Shown: in pieces, positions 6,515 through 61,362 of the stretch
Layout of the letters: each line of letters opens with the position of its first letter
Position numbering within the stretch: position 1 is the first letter of the stretch
Source of the DNA: Octopus vulgaris
Lineage: Eukaryota
Reading direction: 5' to 3'
Assembly: GCA_951406725.2 (NCBI GenBank)
Contig: OX597820.1
Span: 43,896,001-43,960,000, forward strand
DNA: 64,000 nucleotides
The notes under the pieces: generated by a model
Seen by the model: only the letters and a program-made list of their open reading frames with translations
Database searches by the model: none
What the model was told of the DNA's origin: nothing
Position numbers and translations under genes: made by a program

Positions 6515-7910
6515 TAAGGAAGAAAATATAAACAGCAAAAGAGAGAGAGAGAGAGAAAGAAAGAAAGAAGGAAGGAAAGAAGGAAAGAAAGAAAGAGAAA
6601 GGAAGGAAGCAAGCAAGCAAGGAAGGAAGGGAAAAGGTGGAAACAAAAATATAAGATGCAAAAATAATTATTTACAAAGTAATACAACTGAACAGAACGC
6701 TGTTGTTGGAGGAAGGAAGGTTGAGGGAAGGAAGGAGAGGGGTTCGGGAGGGCTGTATGAAAGAAAATGGAAAAGAAGGAAGATATGCAGAGAAATGAAG
6801 GAATCGTTGTGTGAAAGAATGGAACGGAGGAAAAAAGAAAGAAAGAAAGAATTAACGAATGAATGAATGAAAAAAAACAGAAGGAAGGAAGGAAGGAAGG
6901 AAGGAAGGAAGGAAGGAAGGAAGAAAGGAAGGAAGGAAGGAAAGAAGGAAGGAAGGAAGGGAAGGGAAGGAAGAAAGAATTAGTGAATGAATAAGAAAAG
7001 AAGAAAGAAAAAAGAAAGGAAGAGAGAGAGAGAAAGAAAGAAAGAAAGAATGAAACAAAAAAGAAAGAAAGGAAGAAAGAAAGAAAGAAAGAAAGGGAGG
7101 AAGGAAGGAAGGGAAGAAAGAAAGAATTAATGAATGAATAAAAAAAGAAGAAAGAAAAAAGAAAGGAAGAGAGAGAGAGAAAGAAAGAAAGAATGAAACA
7201 AAAAAGAAAGAAAGGAAGTAAGAAAGAAAGAATGATTGTGATAATGGAAATATTGAATGAATATTAAAAGTTATTTTTAATGTCCTTCTTTCATAATATG
7301 CTTCATTAATATCGTTTCTTTCTTTGAGTTTTCTTTCATTCATGTTTGTTCTTTTCGTTTAGAAAGAATCAGAATTAAAAGATTTGAAGAAGTAATTGTT
7401 GAATGAACAAGCAAAAGACAAAAAGGGACGAAGAACGAAAACATTATTAAAAGCCAAAGAAATGAACGACTACCAAAAAGGAAAAGAATTTGAAATGGGA
7501 GACATAAATGAATAAGAATTTGAAGAAGTGACAAAGTATACAGAGAAAAGAGAGAGAAAGAAATGAAGAAATAAAGTCAAAAAAAAAAAGAAAGAAGAGA
7601 GAACGAAAGAAAGGAAGAAAGGTAAAGGAATGAAAGATATGCCAAATCACAAATAGAAAAGAAGGAAACAAACCAATGAGGAAAGAAAGAAAAATCAAAC
7701 AAACGAACTCACAAACAAACAAACAAACAAACAAAAAGAAAGAATGAAAATGAAATAAACGGAAGATGAAAAGAAAAGAAACGGAAGAAACGAAAGACAC
7801 AGAATGAAAGGAAATAAAGGGAAGAAGGAAAAGCGCATGAAGAAGGAACAAAGACACAAAGATGAGACGAAAGAAAGATAGAAAGAAACAAACAAACAAA
7901 AATGAAAGAG

Positions 7911-8020: not shown

Positions 8021-8057
8021 TGCAAGCTGCTGACATATATGTTCTTATGTGATATAA

Positions 8058-8830
8058 GGCGGCGAGCAGGCAGAAACGTTAACACGCCGGGCGAAATGCT
8101 TTGTGGTATTCCGTCTGCCGCTGCATTCTGAGTTCAAATTCCGCCGAGGTCGACTTTGCCTTTCATCCATTCGGGGTCGATTAAATAAGTACCAGTTACG
8201 CACTGAGGTCGATATAATCGACTTAATCCGTTTGTCTGTCCTTGTTTGTCCTCTCTGTGTTTAGCCCCTTGTGGGTAGTCAAGAAATGTGTATTTCGTCT
8301 GTCTGAACGTTCTGAGTTCAAATTCCGCCGAGGTCGACTTTGCCTTTCATCCTTTCGGGGTCGATTAAATAAGTACCAGTTACGCACTGGGATCGATGTA
8401 ATCGACTTAATCCGTTTTTCGTCCTTGTTTGTCCCCTCTGTGTGTAGCCCCTTGTGGGTAGTAAAGAAATAAGTATTTCGTCTGTCGCTACGTTCTGAAT
8501 TCAAATTCCGCCGAGGTCGACTTTGCCTTTCATCGTTTCGGAGTCGATAGATTAAGTACCAGTTACGCACTGTGGTTGATGTAATTGACTTTATCCAATT
8601 GTCTGTCTTTGTTTGTCCACTCTATGTTTAGCTCCTTGTGAGTAGTAAAGAAATAGAAATAGGTATTTCGTCTGTTTTTACCTTCAGAGTTCAAATTCCA
8701 CAGAGGTCGACTTTTGCCTTTCATCCTTTCGGGATCGATAAATTAAGTAACAGCTGCGTTACTGGGGTCGATCTAATCGACTGACCCCTCCCTAGAAAAA
8801 ATTTCGGGCCTTGCGCCTAGAGTAGAAAAG
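8058..8830 (+). mobile_element. Meta-domain tRNA-SINE (family A), nested tetramer
   Basis: One full tRNA-like head (GGCGGCGAGCAGGCAGAAACGTT...GAGTTCAAATTCC), then four Meta-like domains (GGTCGACTTTGCCTTTCATCCTTTCGGGGTCGAT..AAGTACCAG) 182-190 bp apart. The last unit has a different tail. Confidence 0.9.
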
Positions 8831-9013
8831 GTTATGTGATATATATTAATAATACAGTTTACTTAGTGCAAACATAGAACTCAATATGTTGGGTAGAATG
8901 GGTATATATGTCTATCATATCAAATGTTAACAGTCTATAGCTGTTACAATCGCGCCGGTTCCCTTTACAGTCAGTTTTCTTAAATTATTATAATCACTAC
9001 GGAAAGAAGTATA

Positions 9014-9928
9014 CGAGGTGGTATCAAAATGTTCCCAGACTAGTTATGTTTAATAAAAAATATAATAACTTATTTACCTATGTTTTAACATCATGTCCTT
9101 CGAAATAGTCCCCTTGAGCAGCAATACACCGGTCCTAGCTTTCCTGCCACTTTTGAAATCCGACCCGGAAGTCATTATCCGTAAGCGAGTCGAAGACCTA
9201 CAATTTGCTCTGAATATCGACAAGTGTTAAAACGACGGCCATTGAGCTACATTTTCCTCTTGGGGAAGAGATGGAAGACCACAGGTGCTAAATTTGGCAA
9301 ATAGCGCGGGTGCAGAAGTGATAACACGTTGTTTTTTCGCGAGTGAACAGAGCTCGGTGACAGGGTGCTTTGTCGTTGTGAGCAATCCAATTATTCGCGC
9401 TCCACAAATCCGGACACTTTCGCCGAATGTCTTCCCTCAAACGCTTCATAACGTAACAGTAGAACTCTTGGTTGACGGTCTGGCCATGGAGGACTAATTC
9501 TCGATGTACAACACCACGTTTCCGGTGATGACGCTCGTGGCGGGTCTTCCAGGTCATTCATCGTCTTCCAGGGACGTTTTTTTCCGCATTTGAAGCGCTC
9601 GTGCCACTCGTAACATTGCGTAGGACCCATTACCTTGTTGTCGCCGTAAGCTTGCCGAAGCATGCTCAATGTCTATGTAGCAGACTTCCAAATTTAACAC
9701 AAAATTTCACGCTAGCTCGTTGTTCCTATGCATGACAAAATCGCAGACTACAGAGTAGATGTAATAACCAAAACAAAAATTTCACAACTTTCGAAATAGA
9801 CACAGCAATGTCACTCTGCACATTGCATAATGAAGGTCACTTGTTAGCTCTCACTTCACATGCAACCGTGTGCTGCCATGTGTTGGCGCGCTACAGAAGT
9901 GGTTCGGGAACGTTTTGATACCACTTCG
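9014..9928 (-). mobile_element. Internally deleted mariner (DD34D) element with both terminal inverted repeats (TIRs)
   Basis: TIRs CGAGGTGGTATCAAAATGTTCCC (9014) and GGGAACGTTTTGATACCACTTCG (9906-9928), with TA on the left. HTH remnant MLRQAYGD..QCYEWHERFK; catalytic region GVVHRELVLHGQTVNQEFY..RLREDIRRKCPDLW..HNDKAPCH. Confidence 0.92.
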
Positions 9929-13935: not shown

Positions 13936-14332
13936 AACTCTCTTTCTATTGGCGATAAATTTAGAAAATTTAGAAAATAAAATCAGAATATACATAAATA
14001 CATGATGATTATATAATATTCTGGAAACGTGTTAAGAGAAATATGACGCCAGTAGTCTTAAACTCGTATATTCAGAGATAAACACGTATAATTCAAGATA
14101 AACAGTTATCATATGAAGAAAGATAGGAATAGAGATCAGCAACTCTATAAAGATATGAAGATATGAATAGAGATCGGACTTTCACGTATAAATAATATTC
14201 AATACAGGCTACACGTGATAAAACCACATAAATCTCACACATATAAAACTGCGCCTTAGGAATGGTCTTCACCATTAACGACACTAACATACATGTGCAC
14301 ATATAAGCAGAGAGAGAAGAAAATAAAAGTGT

Positions 14333-14407
<75 letters not shown>

Positions 14408-14410
<3 letters not shown>

Positions 14411-14532
14411 TCTGTGAATCTGTGACGGAATTGTCGGCAATTATATCCACATATATACACAAGTCCGTTACTAAAATTACTTGCATCAATGTAACGACAT
14501 ATATCAAGTGTGTGTCTGTGTGTGTGTGTGTA

Positions 14533-14592
<60 letters not shown>

Positions 14593-14691
14593 ATCTGTGA
14601 ATCTGTGACGGAATTGTCGGCAATTATATCCACATATATACACAAGTCCGTTACTAAAATTACTTGCATCAATGTAACGACATATATCAAG
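14408..14691. repeat. Direct duplication of a ~100-bp unique segment plus (TG)n, period 183 bp
   Basis: 14409-14508 is identical to 14592-14691 by eye. Confidence 0.9.
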
Positions 14692-17299: not shown

Positions 17300-18990
17300 C
17301 AACTATCCCCACGTAGTGAGTTGTAATATATATAAGAAATTAAAAAAGGAAAATACGCACACTTACATAGTTTTAATATAACTTTTAATATATCGACCGG
17401 TTTCGCAATCGCTATTTATAATATTATGTTTTATTTATTTGAAAATGTATTTTTTCTGAAGAAGAAATTTTGTCCATGTTGTATGTGATGAAATCCACGA
17501 GCAAATGACTTCACAAGTAGATAAATAAGGGGGGGGGGGGGTTAATTGGTTATCGCTATTATTGTTATTGTTGGTGTAAGAGAGATAACTGTTCAGCTTT
17601 CGGTAATGGGAAGGGAATATATATGTACAGACAAAACAAGTTTCGAAAAGCTTGTTTAGTGAGGGGATTTATGCACAGTGATGTAATCGTGAATTAAGAT
17701 ATGTAAAAAGATAAAAGATGGTTATGCGTGCATATTAAGGCGTGTTCTGTACTTGTCAATGAAAAAGTTTCTTTATTTAAACGTTCTTGTGGAGATATTG
17801 TGTCTTTGCACTGATAGAAGGGGAAGACTGTGAAATTTAGTTTGATGTTATCTGCACATTTTCCTATATGTTCACTGAGAGGAATTTGCCTGTATTGCGG
17901 GAAGCGGATTTGCTCTTTATATAGAGTGGTTCTCTTTCTCAAAGTCATACTCGTTTGTCCAATATAGTAGTGTCCGCAGCCCGAGCAAGTTTTTATATAA
18001 ATTAGGTTCTCAGAGGCACAAATGAAACTAGTTTTAATTGTGAACCTCTGTCTTTGTTTGAAAAGGAAATCCGAGCCTTCAAGAAGGTTGGGGCAGGTTC
18101 CACAGTTTGGGCGTCCACATTTTTCAACTGTTGGTTTCGTGGTTGTTTTGTCAAGCTTCGTGTTTGTTAGTAGTCTCTTTAGCGATTTGTCTTGTGCATT
18201 TGATGAGTTTGTGTGTTTTGAGGATGTCATTCATTTTTGGATCTCTAGTTAGTAAAGGAAGAGTTTGCACCATAGTGTTGAATGCCTCACTGTTTCTGGG
18301 GTTGTGTGTTGATATAAATAGTAATGTTTTGAGTTGAGGTGTGGTGATTTGTTTTGTTGTTCTTAGTGTTTTTGTGTCTAATTGTTTGGTACGTTTAATT
18401 ACCTCGTCAATAAGTGAGGGTGGGTATTGTTTTTCAATAAGCGCTGTTTTGAGGTCTTGAAGACGAAGGTCCCAAGTTGTTCTATCAGATACTATTGTGC
18501 AAATCCTTTTTGCCAAATTGAAAGGGATATTTATTTTGATATGTTTCGGTTGGCATGAGTTAAAGAGGAGATATTGTTTTGAATCAGTTGTTTTATAATA
18601 GATGTCAGTTACGATTTCATTGTTAACTTTTTTTATAAAGATGTCTAAAAATGGGAGTTGTTCTGTGTTATATTCCATTGTGAATTGAATGTTACTATTT
18701 ATATCATTTAGTGTTGATTTGAAATCCAAAAGTTTGTCGATGTTCTCCTCCCAAATGATAAAGCAGTCATCTAGGTATCTCTTCCAATTTTCTCTTATGT
18801 AGAGGTAAAATGGGTAAACATATTTCTGAAGTAATACTTCATATAAGGTGAATTAAAAATAACCCATTATTAGGTTCGCAAGAACAGGAGCTGCTTTCGT
18901 TCCTATCTCAATTCCGCAATTTTGACGATAGTATGTGTCATCAAATAGGAAATAATTGTTCTGAAGTATACATACGGGAGTAATATCTTT
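17300..18990 (-). mobile_element. Penelope-like retroelement, 5'-truncated RT + GIY-YIG endonuclease pseudogene (Neptune-like Cys linker)
   Basis: RT motifs YYRQNCGIEIGTKAAPVLANLIMGY, WKRYLDDCFIIW, IQFTME..LPFLDI and TDIYYKTTDSKQYL; linker KCGRPNCGTC; endonuclease NLIYIKTCSGCGHYYIGQTSMTLRKR. Frameshifts present. Confidence 0.93.
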
Positions 18991-18999
18991 CTTCAGTTG

Positions 19000-19332
19000 T
19001 GAGATCTCTCTCTCTCTCTCTCTCTCTTCCTTTCTCTGTCTGTCACTCTCTCTCTCTCTCTCTTCAACCTCATAGATCTGGTTTCCCGATTTCTGTGCCG
19101 CATGATTCCACCTCAGCTGGACGGGAAGCCAGTCCATCGCAGCGTTACTCAACAAACCGGAAGAGAGAGAGAGTGAGAGAAAGTTGTGGCGAAAGAGTAC
19201 AATAGGGGTCGCCACCACCCCCTGCCGGAGCCTCGCGGAGCTTTTAGGTGTTTTCGCTCAATAAACACACACAACGCCAGGTCTCGGAATCGAAACCGCG
19301 AGTCCGCTGCCCTAACCACTGGGCCATTGTGC

Positions 19333-23439: not shown

Positions 23440-24366
23440 TCATTTGTATTTTCATATGTTAATCAGCAGATAAGAGGAAGGTCCATCGACCTTAGCAGTT
23501 GTCTCCTATTTCTCCAGCACAGAATGATGAAACTAAAATGAAAGAGAGCTACACAAATTTAGAAATATCTCGATTTTTAAAAGTTGCCAGATCTTTCGTC
23601 TACAAAGTTTTAAGGAGCCAGAGACTAAAGGTGGAAACGTATCACCAGTATCAAAGTATAAAAAACATTCTAAACGCTCTGAAATCATCAGAACACCTGA
23701 ATTTATCCAGCAAGGTCAACAGACCATTGATTACAATCCCAAAAAGTCCATAAAGTCAATGGCAAAAGATCTCCAGGTGTCAAAAGTAACAGTCAGAAAT
23801 GTTGTCCACGAAGACATTCGATATAAGTCTTATATGTTGAGGAAAAGTCAATTTGTCAGAAAAAGCAAAAGAAAATTACTACATTAGATCTAAAAGGCTC
23901 TTAAACAAACTGAAAAATCCAGCAGAAAAAGATTTGATTTGGTTTTTCTCAAACGGAAAAAACTTCGATCAAGATCAAAATGTTAACAGAGGAGACAGGT
24001 GGTTATGTACAGACTCTTCTGAAGTTTCAAGTGTTACGCATACAAAATTTCTTGCATCTGTCATGGTTTTAGTGGTTGTCAACAATGAAGGGCATGTGAT
24101 GCCACCTTACTTTATTCTGCAAGGCTTTAGAGTTAACTCTGTCGTCTACATTGAGTTCCTGGAAATAATTCTTAAGCCCTAGCATATCCCCTAACATTTG
24201 GCCTCCTGATTCCTCAGATCTCAATCCATTGTTGAGAGAGGGGTCAATGAACACGCCCATAACACCAAAGGTTCTTTGAAAGCTACCATAGTCAGAGTAA
24301 TGTCTAAAATGGAGCGAGACCACTTGATTCGAGCATGTACATGGCTTAGATCTCATATAGAAGCAG

Positions 24367-26011: not shown

Positions 26012-26650
26012 AAGGCGGCGAGCAGACAGAATCGTTAAGCACGCCGAGCAAAATCCTTTGCGCATTTGGTCTGTGCTTAAGTTCTGAGTTCAAATTCTGC
26101 CGAGGTCGACTTTCCCTTTCATCCTTTCGGTGGGGGGCAGGTTGATGAAATAAGTACCAGTTGCGTACTGGGGATCGATCTAATTGACTGGCCCCCTCTC
26201 CAATAATTTTGGGCTTTGTGTCGAGAGTAGGAAAGAATATTATAAGAGGAAGGCGGTGAGCTAGCAAAAAGGTTAGCACGCCGGGCAAAATGCTTAGCGG
26301 TATTTCGTCTGTCTTTACGTTCTGAGGTCGACTTTACCTTTCATCCTTTCGGGGTTGATGAAACAAGTACCAGTGAAGTACGGGGATCGATGTGATCAAC
26401 TTACCCCATCTCCACAAATTTCAGGCCTTGTTTAAGGCAGTGAGCAAGCAGAATCGTTAAGCACGCCGGGGAAAATGCTTAGCGGCATTTCGTCTGTGCG
26501 TACATCCTGAGTTCAAATTCCGCCGAGATCGACTTTGCTTTTCATCCTTTCGAGGTCGATAAATTATGTACCAGTTGATCACTGGGGTCGGTATAATCGA
26601 CTTACCCACTCTCCTGAACTTGCTAGCCTTGTTACAAAATTTGAAACCAT
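26012..26650 (+). mobile_element. Three head-to-tail complete family A SINE monomers (tail type B)
   Basis: Heads at about 26013, 26252 and 26436, each with a Meta-like domain and a GGCCTTGT-type tail. Confidence 0.85.
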
Positions 26651-27752: not shown

Positions 27753-30700
27753 AAGTTTCTTTATTGGCCACACAGGGCTGCACACAGTTGGGACAAGTTA
27801 CAAGGTAGAGCTTTTCTTTTGGGGGTATGAAAAAACAAAGAACAAAAAACAAAAGAAACAAAAAAGTGGCGTAGGTTTTCGATCAAAAGGGATCGTAAAA
27901 GGGAAAAAAAGGAAAAAAAGGAAAAAAAAAAGGAAAAAAAAGAAAAAGAAACAAAAGACAAGAAAAAGGAAAAAAGAAGAAAAAAGGAGGAGAGGAAAAA
28001 AACGATCAATATGGATCGTGTATCACAGAGTCATGATGTACGGTATAAAGGGGGAAGCAGATAAGGTTTATCCGTGGGAAGAAAAGCCTACGAAAAAGAC
28101 CAAGGTAACCTCGGTCAATATTGTTATATGTTACCACATTTGTTTGCATGTGGGTAACCCCCTGTTTTCAATTTCTGGATTCATAGGATTATGCTCAAGG
28201 TGGCTTCGTCATTCGTCATCCTTGCTACATTCACCCATCTTTTTTTAAAACATTCGCTAGACAAAACTTGCCTCTCTACTCTCACTTTCCTTTTCAAGTG
28301 GTACTTGAAGAAGTTGATGAGAGATTGACCAGAGAGGAAAGTGTTTGTCTCCAATCCTTTCAGACGCGTCCACTAGATTCTCTTGCCATAGCCACAAGGA
28401 TGATGAAAATAGCTCTTCCTTCCCGTTTGAAGGAAGGAGGGGTGACAATATTGACGATAGACTCGGCTGATAAACCGACTCGTCCCACACGTGACAGCAG
28501 TTGTTCGACATAAGCCCACAGGTCGGAAATTGTTGGACACTGCACGAGTGCGTGCAGAACGGTTTCGTCGCTCTGACCGCATCTCGGGCAGGTCGGCCCC
28601 GTGTTTCTCGAGCCGTGTCTATAGAGCTTATCCCGAACGGGTAGTGCTTCTCGGTAGCACTGCCAGGCCAGGGATCTCTGGAAGTTGTCCATGGGCCCTG
28701 GCCCGAAAGTCGTCCCGAACAGGCAGGTCAGGTATTCCTGGTCGACGTCCAGGTTCGCCCCGAGCTCGTCGTCGTACTTCCCCTCCACTAATCCCCTATA
28801 GAATGCTTTGGTTGTGATGGAGTCACTCAAGGTCGACCCAGGACGGCAGAGTTGCTTGAGAGCAACGCGACACTCGCGGTGTCATTCGCCTTTCCTCGGC
28901 CTCTTTCTGATCCACGACTGCAGTTCGGTCATAGAGACGAGCTGCGGGAAAGCGTGCCTCACAAACGGCGACCACACATGTTCACCGTCGTCTACGAAGT
29001 GCCTGAGATGTCGCAGTCTCAGCGCGTGTCTGCGCATCATCAACCACGGCATGCGCAGCCCTCCTTTTAACGGGTGTTGACAGTAAATGGATCGCCTGAC
29101 CATCGGGACGCATCCTTTCCACAAGAAGCGAAAGAGAATGCGTTCTAGTTTGGTGATGGTAGGGTCGGGACAAGGCACGACGGTCAGGCGGTAGTAGATG
29201 ACGGACGTGATGTACGTGTTCGCCACCCCCGCCCGACCTTTTAGAGACAGTTTCCTCTCGGCCCATTGCCGGGCGGGAGTGACCACCCTACTCATTATCT
29301 CGTTCCAGTTCTTCTCCACTTGGAGGTCCAGACCGAACCAGACCCCGAGCAACTCGACCGGACCGTCGGTCCAGCGTCCCACGACGGAGGCGCTGGTGGA
29401 CGGCATGGGCTTGCTTCTCTAGGTGCCTAATCGCAAGACCACTGACTTTTCCCGGTTGATTTTTGCTCCTGTCGCCGCTTCGTAGTTTTTCAATGTCTCG
29501 CCGACCTGCTCGATGTGCTCGTGGCTAGACACTATGACGGTGACGTCGTCCGCGTATGCAGACACGCTCGTCCCGCATCCCAGTTCTCCTGGGATGCCCC
29601 TCAGAGTTGCCAGCTTCCGCAATAATGGCTCGAGAGTCAATACGTATAGAAGCGACGAGCTGGGGCATCCCTGACGGACCGAACGTGCGATGTCGAAAGG
29701 TCTCGATAGATGTCCATTTACGCGAATTACCGAACGGAAGCCTCTGTACAAAGCGGCTATCCAGCCGCGAAAGACGGGACCGAAGTCAGCCGCTCTGAGG
29801 ACAGCCTCCAAGTATCGATGGTCCACCCTATCGAAAGCTTTCGATTGATCCAAATTGATCAGCGCCCCACCCATGCCAGGTTCGTTAACTACCCTGTCTA
29901 TGATGTAGCGCATCATGGTCCGGACCGGCTCGGCGCACGTTTGCGCCTTGTCGACCAGTTTCTCGATGACAAGCGCCAACCTCTTGGCTAACACCTTGGC
30001 CAAAATTCTCAAGCCTGCATTAAGCAGAGTGATGCGCCTAAAGCTATCTATTACATTTCCCTTGTTTAGATCTTTCTTCAGCAGTGTTACGGCTCCTCGG
30101 CTCACAAAACCAGGAATGCTCCCGTTTTGCTGCCAAGACGTCTCCTAACAAGTCTGGAATACAACTGTAAAGCTCGTAGAGTAGACCATCCAAACCCGGC
30201 GATTTGTCACTCGAGCATTCTGCCATCGCGTTCTGCACTTCCGCCGCCGTGATGGCACCTTCGCAGCACCCTGCCTCTCTTGTCGAGAGTCGTGGTAGGC
30301 TGTGTAGGTAGGCATTGAAGTCCATCCTACGTTCTTGCCCGCCACTCGTCCCGAACAGTCGGGCAAAATGCTGTTGAAAGGCCTCACACATTTTACTTCG
30401 CTCGAGCAATTCGCGCCCCTGTTCATCTACCAGAGACCGAATGGTGGCTTTGTTGCCCTGTTGCGCCTCTGCCAACCGGGCCTCTCTCGCGGCTCCAACA
30501 CCTTCATTCCTGAGAGCACGCATCCTAGCTCTGACAGCACACCCTTAGTGTTTGGCGTTGAAGTGTTGGTCGAGGGCCAACCTCGCCGCCAAAACATCGG
30601 ATGCGATGCCGCTTCTAATTGCCTCTTCTAGCTTCTTAACTAGCTCACCCTCTACTCTATTTCTATCTATGGCTAGTGCTTTGCTGTACCTAATCGCTTC

Positions 30701-31652
30701 TGCTTTTACTGCTCTCTTGAGAGCAAACCACCATTTGTTGTTGATGATGGCTCCCGTCAAAGCCCTCTTTACTAGTATGCTAATCCGGTCTCTGAAAACC
30801 TGTCTCGATGGGAAAGACGCGTTTAGTTTCCAGTATCTGGGACCCTGCCTAAGTGTCTTACCTAAGTTTAGCGTACATATCACAAGTTTGTGAACCGTGT
30901 AGCTGACTATGTGTAATTGTGGACATCCTATGCTATCTCTATCTACTGTCCTACACAGTATCCTATCTAGATACGACCTCGACGACCCGATGCGGTTGCT
31001 CCATGTCCACGTTGGCGCATTCGGGTGGTCTAGTCGAAAAGCGCACCCATTGCTGCCGTCGACATCCAGGACGACCAGTCTACCCTCCGGGTCTACGAAT
31101 ATTGTCTTTACTTTGAGATCCAGACTCTTGCGAAAAAGTACCGCGGTGCCACTACCGCCCATTCTTGGCAGACAGGAGGGAAAATAACTGTTGAACTGTC
31201 CGCCAAACATGGTCTTTAGGGTCCCCGGATTGTGGGGTCTGGTCTCACTTATGGCTATGATTTCTAACTTGTGTGACTTTATGTCACTTAAGAGGTACCC
31301 TTGTTTCCAAGGGGACCCCACGCCACGCGCATTTACACAACCAATCTTGATCATAATCCTAATGAATTAGAATACAAGTGAACAGAGGGTTACTTACTGC
31401 TCGAAAGTTTTTGCTTTCTCCTCCTTTGGTTTGTCCTCGAGGAGATCCCAGTAAAGTTTCTTTGTGAGATATTTTTAGCATTTACCAACCGCACTGGGGA
31501 AAATGCCTTTGAGTCTGTGTTGCAGACTTTTGGAGATGTGTAATATTTTGATGTGGTCTGGTGGTGTTGTGTATGGGTGATTGTTTGTTTTTATGTCATC
31601 TTCTGTAATGTTTGTTTTTGATTTGATGTATTCCATCAAATTTGTGTTTTTG
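27753..31652 (-). mobile_element. Tx1/L1-clade non-LTR retrotransposon, 5'-truncated and decayed
   Basis: GC-rich island containing the end of ORF1, ORF2 and a 3' UTR ending AATAAAGAAACTT directly before (TATC)n. (GATA)n on both sides. Confidence 0.93.
28181..31354 (-). pseudogene. LINE ORF2 (APE endonuclease, RT, C-terminal zinc finger), frameshifted with internal deletions
   Basis: Endonuclease MIKIGCVNARG..IAISET..TWTW..SRSYLDRI; KSPGLDGL; RT FRRITLLN, LDQSKAFDRVDH, VRQGCPSS, AYADDV; LSLKGR; zinc finger CPRCGQSDETVLHALVQC. Confidence 0.92.
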
Positions 31653-40687: not shown

Positions 40688-40892
40688 CTTTTCTACTCTA
40701 AGCACAAGGCTCGAAATTTCAGGGGAGGGGGACAGCCGATTAGATCGACCCCAGTACGCAACTGGTACTTAATTTATCGATCCTGAAAGGCAAAGTCGAC
40801 CTCAGCGGAATTTGAACTCAGAACGTAAAGACAGACGAAATACTGCTAAGCATTTCGCCCGGCGTGCTAACGTTTCTGCCAGCTCGCCGCCT
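40688..40892 (-). mobile_element. Family A SINE monomer (tail B) with ~17-bp target-site duplication (TSD)
   Basis: TACAAGACTGTTAATAT (40670) and TACAAGTTTGTTAATAT (40893) flank the element. Confidence 0.88.
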
Positions 40893-40921
40893 TACAAGTT
40901 TGTTAATATTATACTATAAGA

Positions 40922-41510
40922 AGGCGGCGGGCTGGCAGAAACGTTAGCACACCGGGCGAAATGCTTAGCGGTATTTCGTCTGCCGTTACGTTCTGAGTTC
41001 AAATTCCGCCGAGGTCGACTTTACTTTTCATCCTTTCTGGGTCGATAAATTAAGTACCAGTTATGCACTGTGGTCGATGTAATGGACTTAATACCTATGT
41101 CTGTCCTTGTTTGTCCCCTCTATGTTTAGCCCCTTGTGGGTAATAAAGAAACAGGTATTTCGTCTGTCTGAACATTCTGAGTTCAAATTCTGCCGAGGTT
41201 GACTTTGCCTTTCATCCTTGTGGGGTTGAATAAATAAGTACCAGTTACGCACTGGGGTCGATATAATCGACTTAATCCGTTTGTCTGTCATTGTTTGTCC
41301 TCTCTGTGTTTAGCCTCTTGTGGGTAGTAAAGAAATAGAAATAGGTATTTCGTCTGTCTTTACGTTCTGAGTTAGAATTCCACCGACGTCAACTTTGCTT
41401 TTCATCCTTTCGGGGTCTATAAAATGAGTACCAGTTGACTACTGAAGTTGATCTTATCCACTTACCCACTAATCCGAAATTTCTGGCCTTGTACCAAAAT
41501 TTGAAACTAA
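40922..41510 (+). mobile_element. Family A SINE nested trimer
   Basis: One head, three Meta-like domains, junctions AAAGAAA(C/T)AGGTATTTCGTCTG at about 41150 and 41340. The last unit is more diverged and has tail B. Confidence 0.9.
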
Positions 41511-51878: not shown

Positions 51879-52320
51879 TATTTCTTTACTACCCTCAAGG
51901 GGCCAAACACAGAGAGGACAAACAAGGACAGACAGACAGATTAAGTCGATTATATCGACCCCAGTGCGTAACTGGTACTTATTTAATCGACCCCGAACGG
52001 ATGAAAGGCAAAGTCGACTCAGAACGTAACAGCAGACGAAATACCTATTTCTTTATTACCTACAAGGGGCTAAACACAGAGGGGACAAACAAGGACAGAC
52101 ATAGGTATTAAGTCGATTACATCGACCCCAGTGCGTATCTGGAACTTAATTTATCGACCCCGAAAGGATGAAAGGCAAAGTCGACCTCGGCGGAATTTGA
52201 ACTCAGAACGTAGCGGCAGACGAAATACCGCAAAGCATTTCGCCCAGCGTGCTAACGTTTCTGCCAGCTCGCAGACGAAATACCGCTAAGCATTCCGCTC
52301 GGCGTGCTAACGTTTCTGCC
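51879..52320 (-). mobile_element. Family A SINE with a younger copy nested in its head, flanked by a 14-bp TSD
   Basis: GCAGACGAAATACC at 52032-52045 and 52271-52284 flanks a near-full-length copy at 52046-52270. The rest of the host head lies at 52285-52320. Confidence 0.88.
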
Positions 52321-55075: not shown

Positions 55076-55713
55076 ATTGGTTTCAAATTTGGGCACAAAG
55101 CCAGCAGTTTTTTCTTTTTTTCGCGGAGTAAGTCGATGATATCGACGCCAGTCTTCTACTGGTACTTATTTTATTGACCTCAGAAGGATGAATGACAAAG
55201 TCGACCATATCGGAATTTGAAGCCAGAGCATAAAGACGAACGAAATGCCGCCAAGCATTTTGCCCGATGTGCTAATAATCGTGTCAGCTCGCCGCCTTAT
55301 TTCTAATAAGAATATTGATTTCAAATTCTGGTACAAGGCCAGTAAGTTCGGAGTAAGGGATAAGTGGATTACATCGACCTAGTACTCAGCTGCTACTTAT
55401 TTTATCGACCTCGGAAAAATGAAAGGCAATGTCAACCTCAGCGGGATTTGAACCCAGAACGTAAAGGCAGACGAAATGCCTATTTCTTTACTACCCACAA
55501 GGGGCTAAACACAGAGAGGACAAACAAGGACAGACAAACGGATTAAGTCGATTATATTGACTCCAGTGCGTAACTAGTACTTAATTTATCGACCCCGAAA
55601 GGATGAAAAGCAAAGTCGACCTCGGCAGAATTTGAACTGAGAACGTTACGGCAGACGAAATACGGCTACGCATTTCGCCCGGCGTGCTAACGTTTCTGCC
55701 AGCTCGCCGCCTT
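55076..55713 (-). mobile_element. Family A SINE cluster: monomer plus nested dimer
   Basis: Monomer at 55076-55298. Older tail-B unit 55312-55480 joined at CAGACGAAATGCC|TATTTC to a young tail-A unit at 55481-55712. Confidence 0.88.
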
Positions 55714-58334: not shown

Positions 58335-59870
58335 TCTCCGTTTCTGGGATATATCAAGTGATAGGCTAGCATGTCTGTACATTAGGTATTCCGACATCAG
58401 AGACAAAGTGAGTATGTATGAAAGTTCGAGACAAGGAAATTCACAGTGCATTAGAAATAAAATAGAATAAAGAGTAAAAGTAGATAGAATACAGACAGAA
58501 TACATCTTTAGATTCTTCCATAGGTTCAAATGCAAGCAAAATCAACACACATAACACTTGCCTATATGCATCCACGGTTGTTACAATATGCGTACATTTT
58601 TCCATTTATTTCTCTTCTCTATCAACATGAGTATCTTAGAAGCTATATAGCTTTAATTCTTTTAATTTAACTTTTTAATTCAACTTTTAACCTTTAATTT
58701 TTATTTTAGTTAATTATTCATCCATTTAATTGTTGTCTTATACTATATATGCCCCCTTAAGCTAGGCAGCTATTTTTAGCTATCCCTACTGACCGCTGAA
58801 CTAAGTATTCTCTCTGACCACACCTAACCTAGAATTAATCGACATAAATACCTTCCTCCTTCACTTTACCAAATCCTTATACCTATTTCTTTATTACCCA
58901 CAAGAGGCTAAACATAGAGGGGACAAACAAGGGCATAGGTATTAAGTCGATTACATCGACCCCAGTGCGTAACTGGTACTTAATTTATCGACTCCGAAAG
59001 GATGAAAGGCAAAGTCGACCTCGGCGGAATTTGAACTCAGAACGTAATGACAGACGAAATACCTATTTCTTTACTACCCACAAGGGGCTAAACACAGAGA
59101 GGACGAACAAGGACAGACAAACGGGTAAAGTCGTTTATATCGACTAACTGGTATTTAATTTATCGACCCCGAAAGGATAAAAGGCAAAGTCGACGTCGGC
59201 GGAATTTGAACTCAGACGAAATACCGCTAAGCATTTCGCCCGGCGTTCTAACATTTCTATCAGTTCACCGCCTTACATTTCTACCAGCTCACCAAATCCT
59301 TATACCCTAACCTTTCAATCGACACTTTCGAAGAATAAACTGGTATCTTATCGCTATCTTTATATTTTAGTTGTTATCTTTTACTTTTGATTTTTGAATT
59401 TACTTTCGCTCTCATTCCTTTTTCCTTCAACCATCCCATTCCTTTTTTCTCTCTTTCTCGTCTCTCTTCTATCCATTCGCTCACAATCCATTTCTGTCTA
59501 TCTTGATGATTGTCTTTCTCACTCTATATACCCACGTGGACCATTTACATGCTAGCTAACCACTTAATGCATTACATCAACATGAACGCATCATTCAAAA
59601 TACTACCAAAATACTGCCTGGATTTACCTAAGGATCTATACCTTCACGAAAGTACGGACAAATCTCCACACACTCTGAAAAATGATGAACTGTGAACTTC
59701 ATTCTCCGGTTTATGTTCTTCTATCTACTTTTACCCTTTATTCTACAATTTTATTCCTTATAAACTGCAAATTTTCCTGTCTAGAACTTCCATACATATT
59801 CACCTTGTCTCTGACGATCCAGTGGATGGACATGCTAGCCAATCACTTGGCAAATCCCAGAAACAGCAGT
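58335..59870. mobile_element. Pair of inverted ~170-bp homologous segments with hammerhead-like cores (probable PLE termini)
   Basis: The reverse complement of 58340-58500 aligns with 59700-59865; CTGA(C/T)G(A/T)...ATCCCAGAAAC occurs in both. Confidence 0.6.
58884..59290 (-). mobile_element. Family A SINE nested dimer with 16-bp outer TSD
   Basis: ACCAAATCCTTATACC at 58868-58883 and 59291-59306; two Meta-like domains. Confidence 0.9.
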
Positions 59871-61028: not shown

Positions 61029-61040
61029 TATTATATAAGA

Positions 61041-61362
61041 CGAGCTGGCAGAAACTTTAGCACGCCGGGCGAAATGCGTAGCCGTATTTCGTCTGCCGCT
61101 ACGTTCTGAGTTCAAATTCCGCCGAGGTCGACTTTGCCTTTCATCCTTTCGGGGTCTGTTAAACAAGTACCAGTTATGCACTGGGGTCGATATAATCGAC
61201 TTAGTCCGTTCGTCTGTCCTTGTTTGTCCTCTCTGTGTTTAGCCCCTTGTGAGTAGTAAAGAAATAAGTATTTCGTCTGTCTTTAAGTTCTGAGTTCAAA
61301 TACCGCCGATGTCGACTTTCTCTTTCACCCGTTCGGGAGCTGTTAATTTAAGTACCAGTTGC
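61041..61362 (+). mobile_element. Family A SINE nested dimer
   Basis: Young tail-A unit joined at AAAGAAATAAGTATTTCGTCTG (about 61260) to a diverged, truncated unit. Confidence 0.88.

Follow-up and report, generated by a model that had tools for sequence, protein, structure and literature searches.

Within the 64-kb window analysed here (the whole stretch of DNA, 64,000 nucleotides), a tandem array of SINE units at 8057-8831 (+) joins one head to three units with a tail of one type (X) and a last unit with a tail of another (Y). Its layout raises the question of how such arrays are built, whether by insertion of successive elements at a preferred site, by local duplication of a SINE segment, or by the copying or joining of transcripts, and, if by insertion, which unit contributes the head and at which end the array grows.

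Organization of SINE arrays in the window

The tetramer, termed array A, agrees with the original prediction of four non-identical units behind a single head, the last of them bearing a different tail. All four units share a core of approximately 117 bp, to which the X tail adds about 65 bp ending in AAAGAAATA, and each opens with the 12-mer GTATTTCGTCTG (at 8106, 8290, 8473 and 8663, with one mismatch in unit 1). The further expectation that every unit is joined at the same junction holds for the register of the join, which is identical throughout and begins with the 12-mer, and fails for its letters, since the X-tail ends at the three junctions differ (CAAGAAATGT, TAAAGAAATAA and TAAAGAAATAGAAATAG). 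TRF describes the array as a repeat of period 184 with 3.6 copies and 85% matches. The last unit clusters with the monomer at 40688-40890 (support 93/87 in the core tree), and the score of the TSD enclosing the whole array was equalled in 1 of 2000 random flanks from the window and in 0 of 2000 shuffles. The X-to-Y junctions of arrays A (8648-8662) and C (41330-41344) both show a doubled GAAATA end, a form that is frequent in contigs of the public runs X1 and X4.

BLAST of the units against the window, together with inspection, revealed five further arrays (C, D, E, F and G) as well as Y-tailed monomers or remnants, about eight in number, the window holding some 20 SINE copies or units. Junctions outside array A lie at 41155 and 41345 (+), 52044, 55479 and 59062 (-), and 61268 (+), each no more than 5 bp from a position at which the junction had been predicted to recur. 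When 11 elements were examined for TSDs, significant repeats were obtained for seven (arrays A, C, E (weakly) and F, unit D1, and two monomers) and none for the other four. The two TSD copies of array F are identical at 16/16 positions and start with GGTAT (59291-59306 / 58868-58883). Array D contains a duplicated 13-bp site (52272-52284 / 52033-52045); GGTAC of non-SINE sequence follows its last tail, and a search for an outer TSD at this array found none. Coordinates are collected in Table 1, and all statistics given below refer to the six arrays of this one window.

Table 1. SINE arrays, their parts and a LINE in the window
Feature	Positions	Strand	Remarks
Left copy of 12-bp TSD, array A	8045-8056	+	12/12 identical to 8832-8843
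SINE head, array A, 49 bp	8057-8105	+	A-box-like motif 8068-8078, +12 in head
5' arm of 13-bp hairpin, array A head		+	Hairpin spans 8088-8117
Unit A1, X tail, alpha type	8106-8289	+	B-box-like motif 8132-8141
Unit A2, X tail	8290-8472	+	Same subfamily as C2 (array C)
Unit A3, X tail with doubled GAAATA end	8473-8662	+	Most diverged X unit
Unit A4, founder body, tail Y1 (AGTAGAAAAG, ending at 8830)	8663-8831	+	Adjoins right TSD copy
Right copy of 12-bp TSD, array A	8832-8843	+	
Broken L1/Tx1-type LINE	27756-31366	-	APE endonuclease PF03372, RT PF00078, zf-RVT PF13966 (Pfam)
Array C: head, X(beta), X(alpha), old Y2 unit	40922-41507	+	15/16 TSD in A+T-rich flank
Array D: resident head, duplicated 13-bp site, near-full X(beta) with own head, resident X(alpha) body	51879-52320	-	
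Array E: young head, X(alpha), old Y2 body	55318-55712	-	Decayed outer TSD, common to next Y2 monomer
Array F: partial extra head, head, X(alpha), X(beta)	58884-59289	-	16-bp TSD
Array G: young head, X(alpha), 3'-truncated old Y body	61039-61362	+	

Neither an ARAGORN gene nor an Rfam match indicated a tRNA in the window; motifs that resemble the A and B boxes of the Pol III consensus are present, the former in the head and the latter in every unit, and a tRNA origin of the SINE head is likely. Octopus is said to harbour the tRNA-derived SINEs OK, OR1 and OR2, reportedly described by Ohshima and Okada in 1994, and the heads and cores in the window presumably resemble these. OR2 is named a CORE SINE (PMC4758252), and tRNA-Core SINEs dominate the repeats of octopus genomes, of which SINEs are the main repeat class (PMC8967140). 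No Rfam ribozyme matched the SINE units up to E 10, which argues against their being retrozymes, and an LTR or TRIM reading was discarded, since the first unit is unlike the last and no internal part is bounded by terminal repeats. SINE pattern scans of viral contigs, metagenome contigs and prokaryote genomes gave 0 matches. In three public contig runs, 299,449-588,111 pieces matched at 80% likeness, figures that do not represent copy number.

The window as a whole is microsatellite-rich animal DNA. At 40844-40970 two oppositely oriented SINE heads, separated by 33 bp, stand back to back and constitute a long inverted repeat; matches to Rfam miRNAs were dismissed as spurious products of these two inverted heads. 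Y-tailed SINEs also form full-length head-to-tail tandems (55081-55712, -; 26015-26647, +), and the TSD copies shared at 55.1-55.7 kb suggest that Y re-targets its own A+T-rich TSD.

A fixed junction between X tail and SINE head

The X-tailed SINE subfamily occupies a single position (G^GTA) that lies between the A-box-like and B-box-like motifs of heads of its own family. Of the 11 X tails in the window, nine are followed by the head-site 12-mer of a resident head; two instead adjoin non-SINE DNA, before GGTAT and GGTAC, one of them with a 16-bp TSD (array F). Irrespective of context, all 11 precede an RGTA, TGTA or GGCA word at one register. GGTAT words in head context make up 12 of the 103 in the window, against 9/11 X tails found there (binomial p 1.7e-7, with the words counted after insertion had happened). 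Among the nine Y tails found, none joins the head site. A motif of 4-5 bases does not by itself account for 9/11 in heads, a point against the explanation proposed below, which assumes longer recognition or homology-aided capture.

Array D is informative as to the level at which joining took place. Along the array, the resident head is followed by the 13-bp site, a near-full X element that carries a head itself, a second copy of the 13 bp and then the resident body, the usual arrangement left when a retrotransposon inserts into a head. Counting against this, TRF allows the two heads to be a local 55-bp duplication; such an event is less apt because its end must by chance fall where the length of the array F TSD predicts. 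The TSDs at D and F argue for insertion at the DNA level at the site.

These features bear directly on an explanation at the RNA level, in which cleavage of SINE transcripts within the hairpin loop of the head would yield 3' halves that are ligated in RtcB-like fashion, or template-switched, to X-tail ends ahead of one integration. The head does contain a 13-bp hairpin with a 4-nt loop, in which 94.9% of cells are paired across nine distinct heads (head folds z -2.1 and -2.7); the junction falls 1-2 nt beyond this loop, and RNA joining predicts a head belonging to unit 1. RtcB joining before retrotransposition is known for U6/L1 (PMC6789731). We nevertheless consider this explanation very improbable, given that X tails meet GGTA in non-SINE DNA as well, with a TSD in array F, that array D duplicates a DNA site, that Y bodies diverged by 15% are unlikely transcript partners, and that covariation in the hairpin is nonsignificant (52/500).

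Contigs of other loci bridge the junction in public runs X1 (record 4) and X4 (record 12); in run X7 it is bridged in none of the eight contigs listed, and one junction form is present in the summary table. Summed depth at the X-tail end versus the core was 0.17M vs 18.0M in X7 (organism C), 19.5M vs 58.9M in X1 and 18.3M vs 49.6M in X4, sums that are not copy numbers and provide a lead only: the last ~15 nt of the X tail, of far lower relative depth in X7 than in X1 and X4, may be lineage-restricted. Among the pieces listed from three contig runs (80% likeness) none extends across 8021-9010; depth at 8945-9010 was 0 in all four public runs compared, of 24 listed, and the raw-read run X21 gave 18 of 12.9 million reads. 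Folding of the X tail was no better than that of shuffles (z -0.4 to 2.0).

Ancestry of units within and between arrays

If a SINE segment had been duplicated in tandem on the spot, or had recombined unequally to yield a SINE-derived satellite, the units of an array should be each other's closest relatives. In an alignment of all 11 X units, none had its nearest relative in its own array (0/11), and mean distances were 12.0% within arrays (6 pairs) versus 10.3% between them (49 pairs), with a permutation p of 0.98 for the duplication prediction. SINE-derived satellites exist in reptiles (PMC10702118), and the period near 184 bp would accord with one. The X-unit distances contradict local duplication, as do the shared endpoint at six loci and the presence of last units from other subfamilies; only strong inter-locus gene conversion could rescue this reading, to which we attach almost no likelihood, and assignment to the class of SINE-derived satellites was rejected on the same kinship evidence.

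Mixed ancestry is equally apparent when arrays are compared. The beta group comprises C1, D1 and F2, which stand first in arrays C and D and last in F; alpha thus precedes beta in F and follows it in C and D. Units A2 and C2 form a clade (96/94 in the core tree, 89/91 in the unit tree) and have different neighbours. No unit order is shared by any two of the six arrays, and their last units are variously Y1, Y2 or X.

This diversity also weighs on a second alternative, by which rare multimers would be transcribed from a single head and retrotransposed whole via the last tail, leaving arrays that are copies of a few composite masters and carry no local history. Outer TSDs do enclose arrays A, C and F in their entirety, and the X units mostly lack T4 terminators, the few such runs being scattered. 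Six arrays with six compositions, subfamilies in both orders, the sisters A2 and C2 among different neighbours, and the decayed TSD of array E are difficult to reconcile with copied masters, the construction of which would still require site-preferring insertion; we judge this alternative decidedly unlikely. The original prediction of sequential insertion at a preferred site, as opposed to tandem duplication, is thereby upheld by unit kinship and by the TSDs at D and F. Two patterns that had been named as capable of overturning it, closest relatives within an array and identical multimers at many loci, were both sought in the window: the former is contradicted by the distances given above, and no single multimeric master occurs among the six arrays.

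Relative age of heads and units

Insertion into a head leaves a choice as to whose head is retained. In arrays C, E and G the core of the last unit lies approximately 15% off the majority and the head 4-9% off (pooled, 8/139 for heads vs 50/327 for last-unit cores, p=0.002; singly, p=0.037, 0.035 and 0.24, G alone being nonsignificant), and monomers have a head and core of like age in 6/6 cases. Array E has an old-type base right after the junction, yet a young head that shares two variants with that of G, and its outer TSD is decayed (~4 differences in 22) next to a young X unit (2.8%). The age of the array A head is not assignable (p=0.49). The pairing of a young head with an old terminal unit, seen in C, E and G, makes it likely that the newcomer brings and keeps its head and that the resident is beheaded. 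The notion that incoming units were headless is accordingly reversed, the head going with the newest unit. The same combination would be expected from a copied X-Y master, and the nearly intact TSD of array C (15/16) beside an old last unit fits a retrotransposed, ready-made multimer as well.

Measures of divergence give a partial order. End branches of the last Y unit measure 0.13-0.15 vs 0.04-0.07 in arrays C, E and G, and are tied in array A (A4 0.065 vs A3 0.067). Private and CpG changes amount to 3.3, 2.8 and 5.5% in array A (the last value being that of A3, which lies 9.4% off the X majority), 2.8 and 5.0% in C, 2.2 and 3.7% in D, and 3.8 and 2.3% in F. Three of five pairs of neighbouring X units follow an age gradient; F is reversed (3.8% vs 2.3%) and A1/A2 are near a tie. 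In array D, where order is set by the TSD, the newer unit is the less diverged (2.2% vs 3.7%). The prediction that the oldest unit stands last holds in three of the four X-Y arrays (C, E and G), the exception being the tie in the tetramer for which it was made. There is good support for the founder standing last; a strict sequence of the X units we only infer. To that extent an array is a partial record of insertion order, and its proposed likeness to spacer acquisition is an analogy only.

A variant sharing the insertion step and differing in polarity alone would make every regenerated junction an equal target, with incoming copies trimmed by pairing of TSD overhangs and only the position of the founder informative. 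It draws on the recreation of GGTATTTCGTCTG at every junction and on the X-X gradient of just 3/5. The base after the 12-mer is C in 5/5 first units vs 1/5 internal X units (p=0.024), from which we conclude that position matters; counting against this, F2 carries the internal-type T though it is founder-like, and under the variant the T of internal X units could derive from a Y target. A tail-TSD-head junction, with an internal head following an X tail, was found at 0 of 9 junctions, and heads of newcomer type occur in arrays C and E. With these and the difference between first and internal units against it, we regard the variant as somewhat unlikely.

Comparison of the X tail with a LINE in the window

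The broken LINE (Table 1) falls in the L1 group, judging from its APE, RT and zf-RVT domains and from the best PDB matches of its protein, which are to LINE-1 ORF2p; among named sequences, those closest to the protein come from cephalopods (Argonauta 63%, Acanthosepion 51%). Its last 50 nt (27756-27805) are identical to the X tail of A2 at 39/50 positions, and shuffled controls did as well in 0/500 cases for A2 and D1 and in 1/500 for E1. Y tails gave no match to the LINE 3' end, and no partner for them was found in the window. The LINE sits inside (TATC)n, with repeats on both sides and not at GGTA, and a test for a shared target showed that this copy and the SINE differ in insertion target. 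Its location in (TATC)n makes this copy at best a relative of the partner, and a sister LINE family may have GGTA as its target. Tx1-clade LINEs are known to vary in target specificity (PMC4494074).

Proposed mechanism

As a whole, the arrays are probably best explained by self-site insertion with head replacement, through target-primed reverse transcription by an L1/Tx1-type LINE enzyme. A Y-tailed or X-tailed monomer would insert first and create the outer TSD. The LINE enzyme would then nick GGTA in the resident head and copy a full-length X RNA, the cDNA end of which, complementary to the 47-bp head of the resident, would anneal to this head and replace it; a seamless single head would result, and the resident would be left with its B box and without its A box. 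Where this last step failed, both heads would stay around a TSD of 13-14 bp, as in array D, or part of the old head would stay, as in array F, layouts that may be likened to annealing failures in R1. Since the newcomer carries a head and the head is the preferred site, each insertion would supply a new target, the array would grow at its 5' end, and beheaded, promoter-less bodies would be shifted downstream. This explanation is founded on observed features, namely X tails joined at one site, the TSDs, units of diverse descent, heads younger than the last units of their arrays and a tail that matches the LINE. From these we infer which enzyme acts, that annealing takes place and in what sequence the X units were added.

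More tentatively, and as a reading that we hold less likely than not, the SINE lineage may have evolved homing into the Pol III promoter of its own family. After exchanging its tail for one of Tx1 type it would insert between the A and B boxes of residents, overwrite their heads, silence them and always add units at the head end; thousands of arrays in strict newest-first order would then chronicle the activity of SINE subfamilies, and CGTAT heads would confer an evolved immunity. The heads of E (55664-55710, -) and G (61039-61083, +) display a two-sided T-G to G-C change at the top pair of the hairpin, which turns the target GGTAT into CGTAT, and both arrays stop at two units; immunity to re-insertion is a possible consequence of the change (n=2, covariation nonsignificant).

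Relation to known systems

The Zepp LINE of green algae inserts into itself and, like the SINE described here, accumulates inside its own copies; it differs in being an autonomous LINE that forms few large clusters, as opposed to promoter replacement in a dispersed SINE. Clusters of Zepp are mentioned in PMC9940879. SINEU-3 of crocodilians, mobilised by Tx1-Mar LINEs (Kojima 2015, PMC4494074), provides a likeness in several respects, as a target-preferring SINE driven by a Tx1-type LINE, with its target in another repeat, a 16-bp TSD and tandems ascribed to sequential insertion. It targets a Mariner transposon, however, and its tandems are whole copies around the TSD, whereas the SINE described here goes to its own head and the resident is probably beheaded. 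In Drosophila rDNA, tandem arrays of R1 and precise 5' junctions of R1 and R2 have been documented (Stage and Eickbush 2009, PMC2718515). R1 arrays are built by re-insertion at a regenerated 14-bp site, and upstream target sequence in the RNA anneals to give a seamless 5' junction, with a two-copy form upon failure that is comparable to locus D; R1 is an autonomous LINE in 28S genes, whereas here a non-autonomous element targets its own family. Tandem Dip/B1 SINE multimers in jerboa and SINE-derived satellites (PMC10702118) resemble the present arrays in having head-to-tail SINE units, which there are full-length or locally amplified; the units here differ in descent and all are cut at a single head position.

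Our literature search returned neither these arrays nor a SINE that targets its own head with head replacement; early octopus SINE work, SINEBase or Repbase may cover them. Target-preferring SINEs, sequential insertion and homology-resolved 5' ends are known parts, and the new twist is self-targeting in the promoter with replacement of the head. Should one subfamily indeed target and replace the promoters of its kin, this would represent competition among non-autonomous elements, and the same self-targeting, if true, a safe-harbour strategy that requires no host gene as target. If arrays prove to be ordered across many loci, SINE subfamilies could be dated directly relative to one another, and natural 5' junctions in their thousands would allow a test of how target homology primes second-strand synthesis, which is still debated for LINE integration. 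For repeat annotation, 'tandem repeats' of 184 bp would be entered as nested insertions and not as satellites.

Neighbouring sequences

Other repeats are present in the window. Broken ORFs at 17694-19257 (-), with a weak GIY-YIG match (E 0.005, below the Pfam cut-off), presumably resemble a Penelope-like element, and the segments at ~9010-9500 and 23537-24182 we take to be Tc1/mariner-like remnants; a Pfam search with two ORFs at 23.5-24.2 kb gave no match. Two-copy tandem duplications of 147 bp (6950-7232, 93% matches) and 183 bp (14327-14691, 97%) lie in microsatellite-rich DNA and are possibly products of assembly or slippage.
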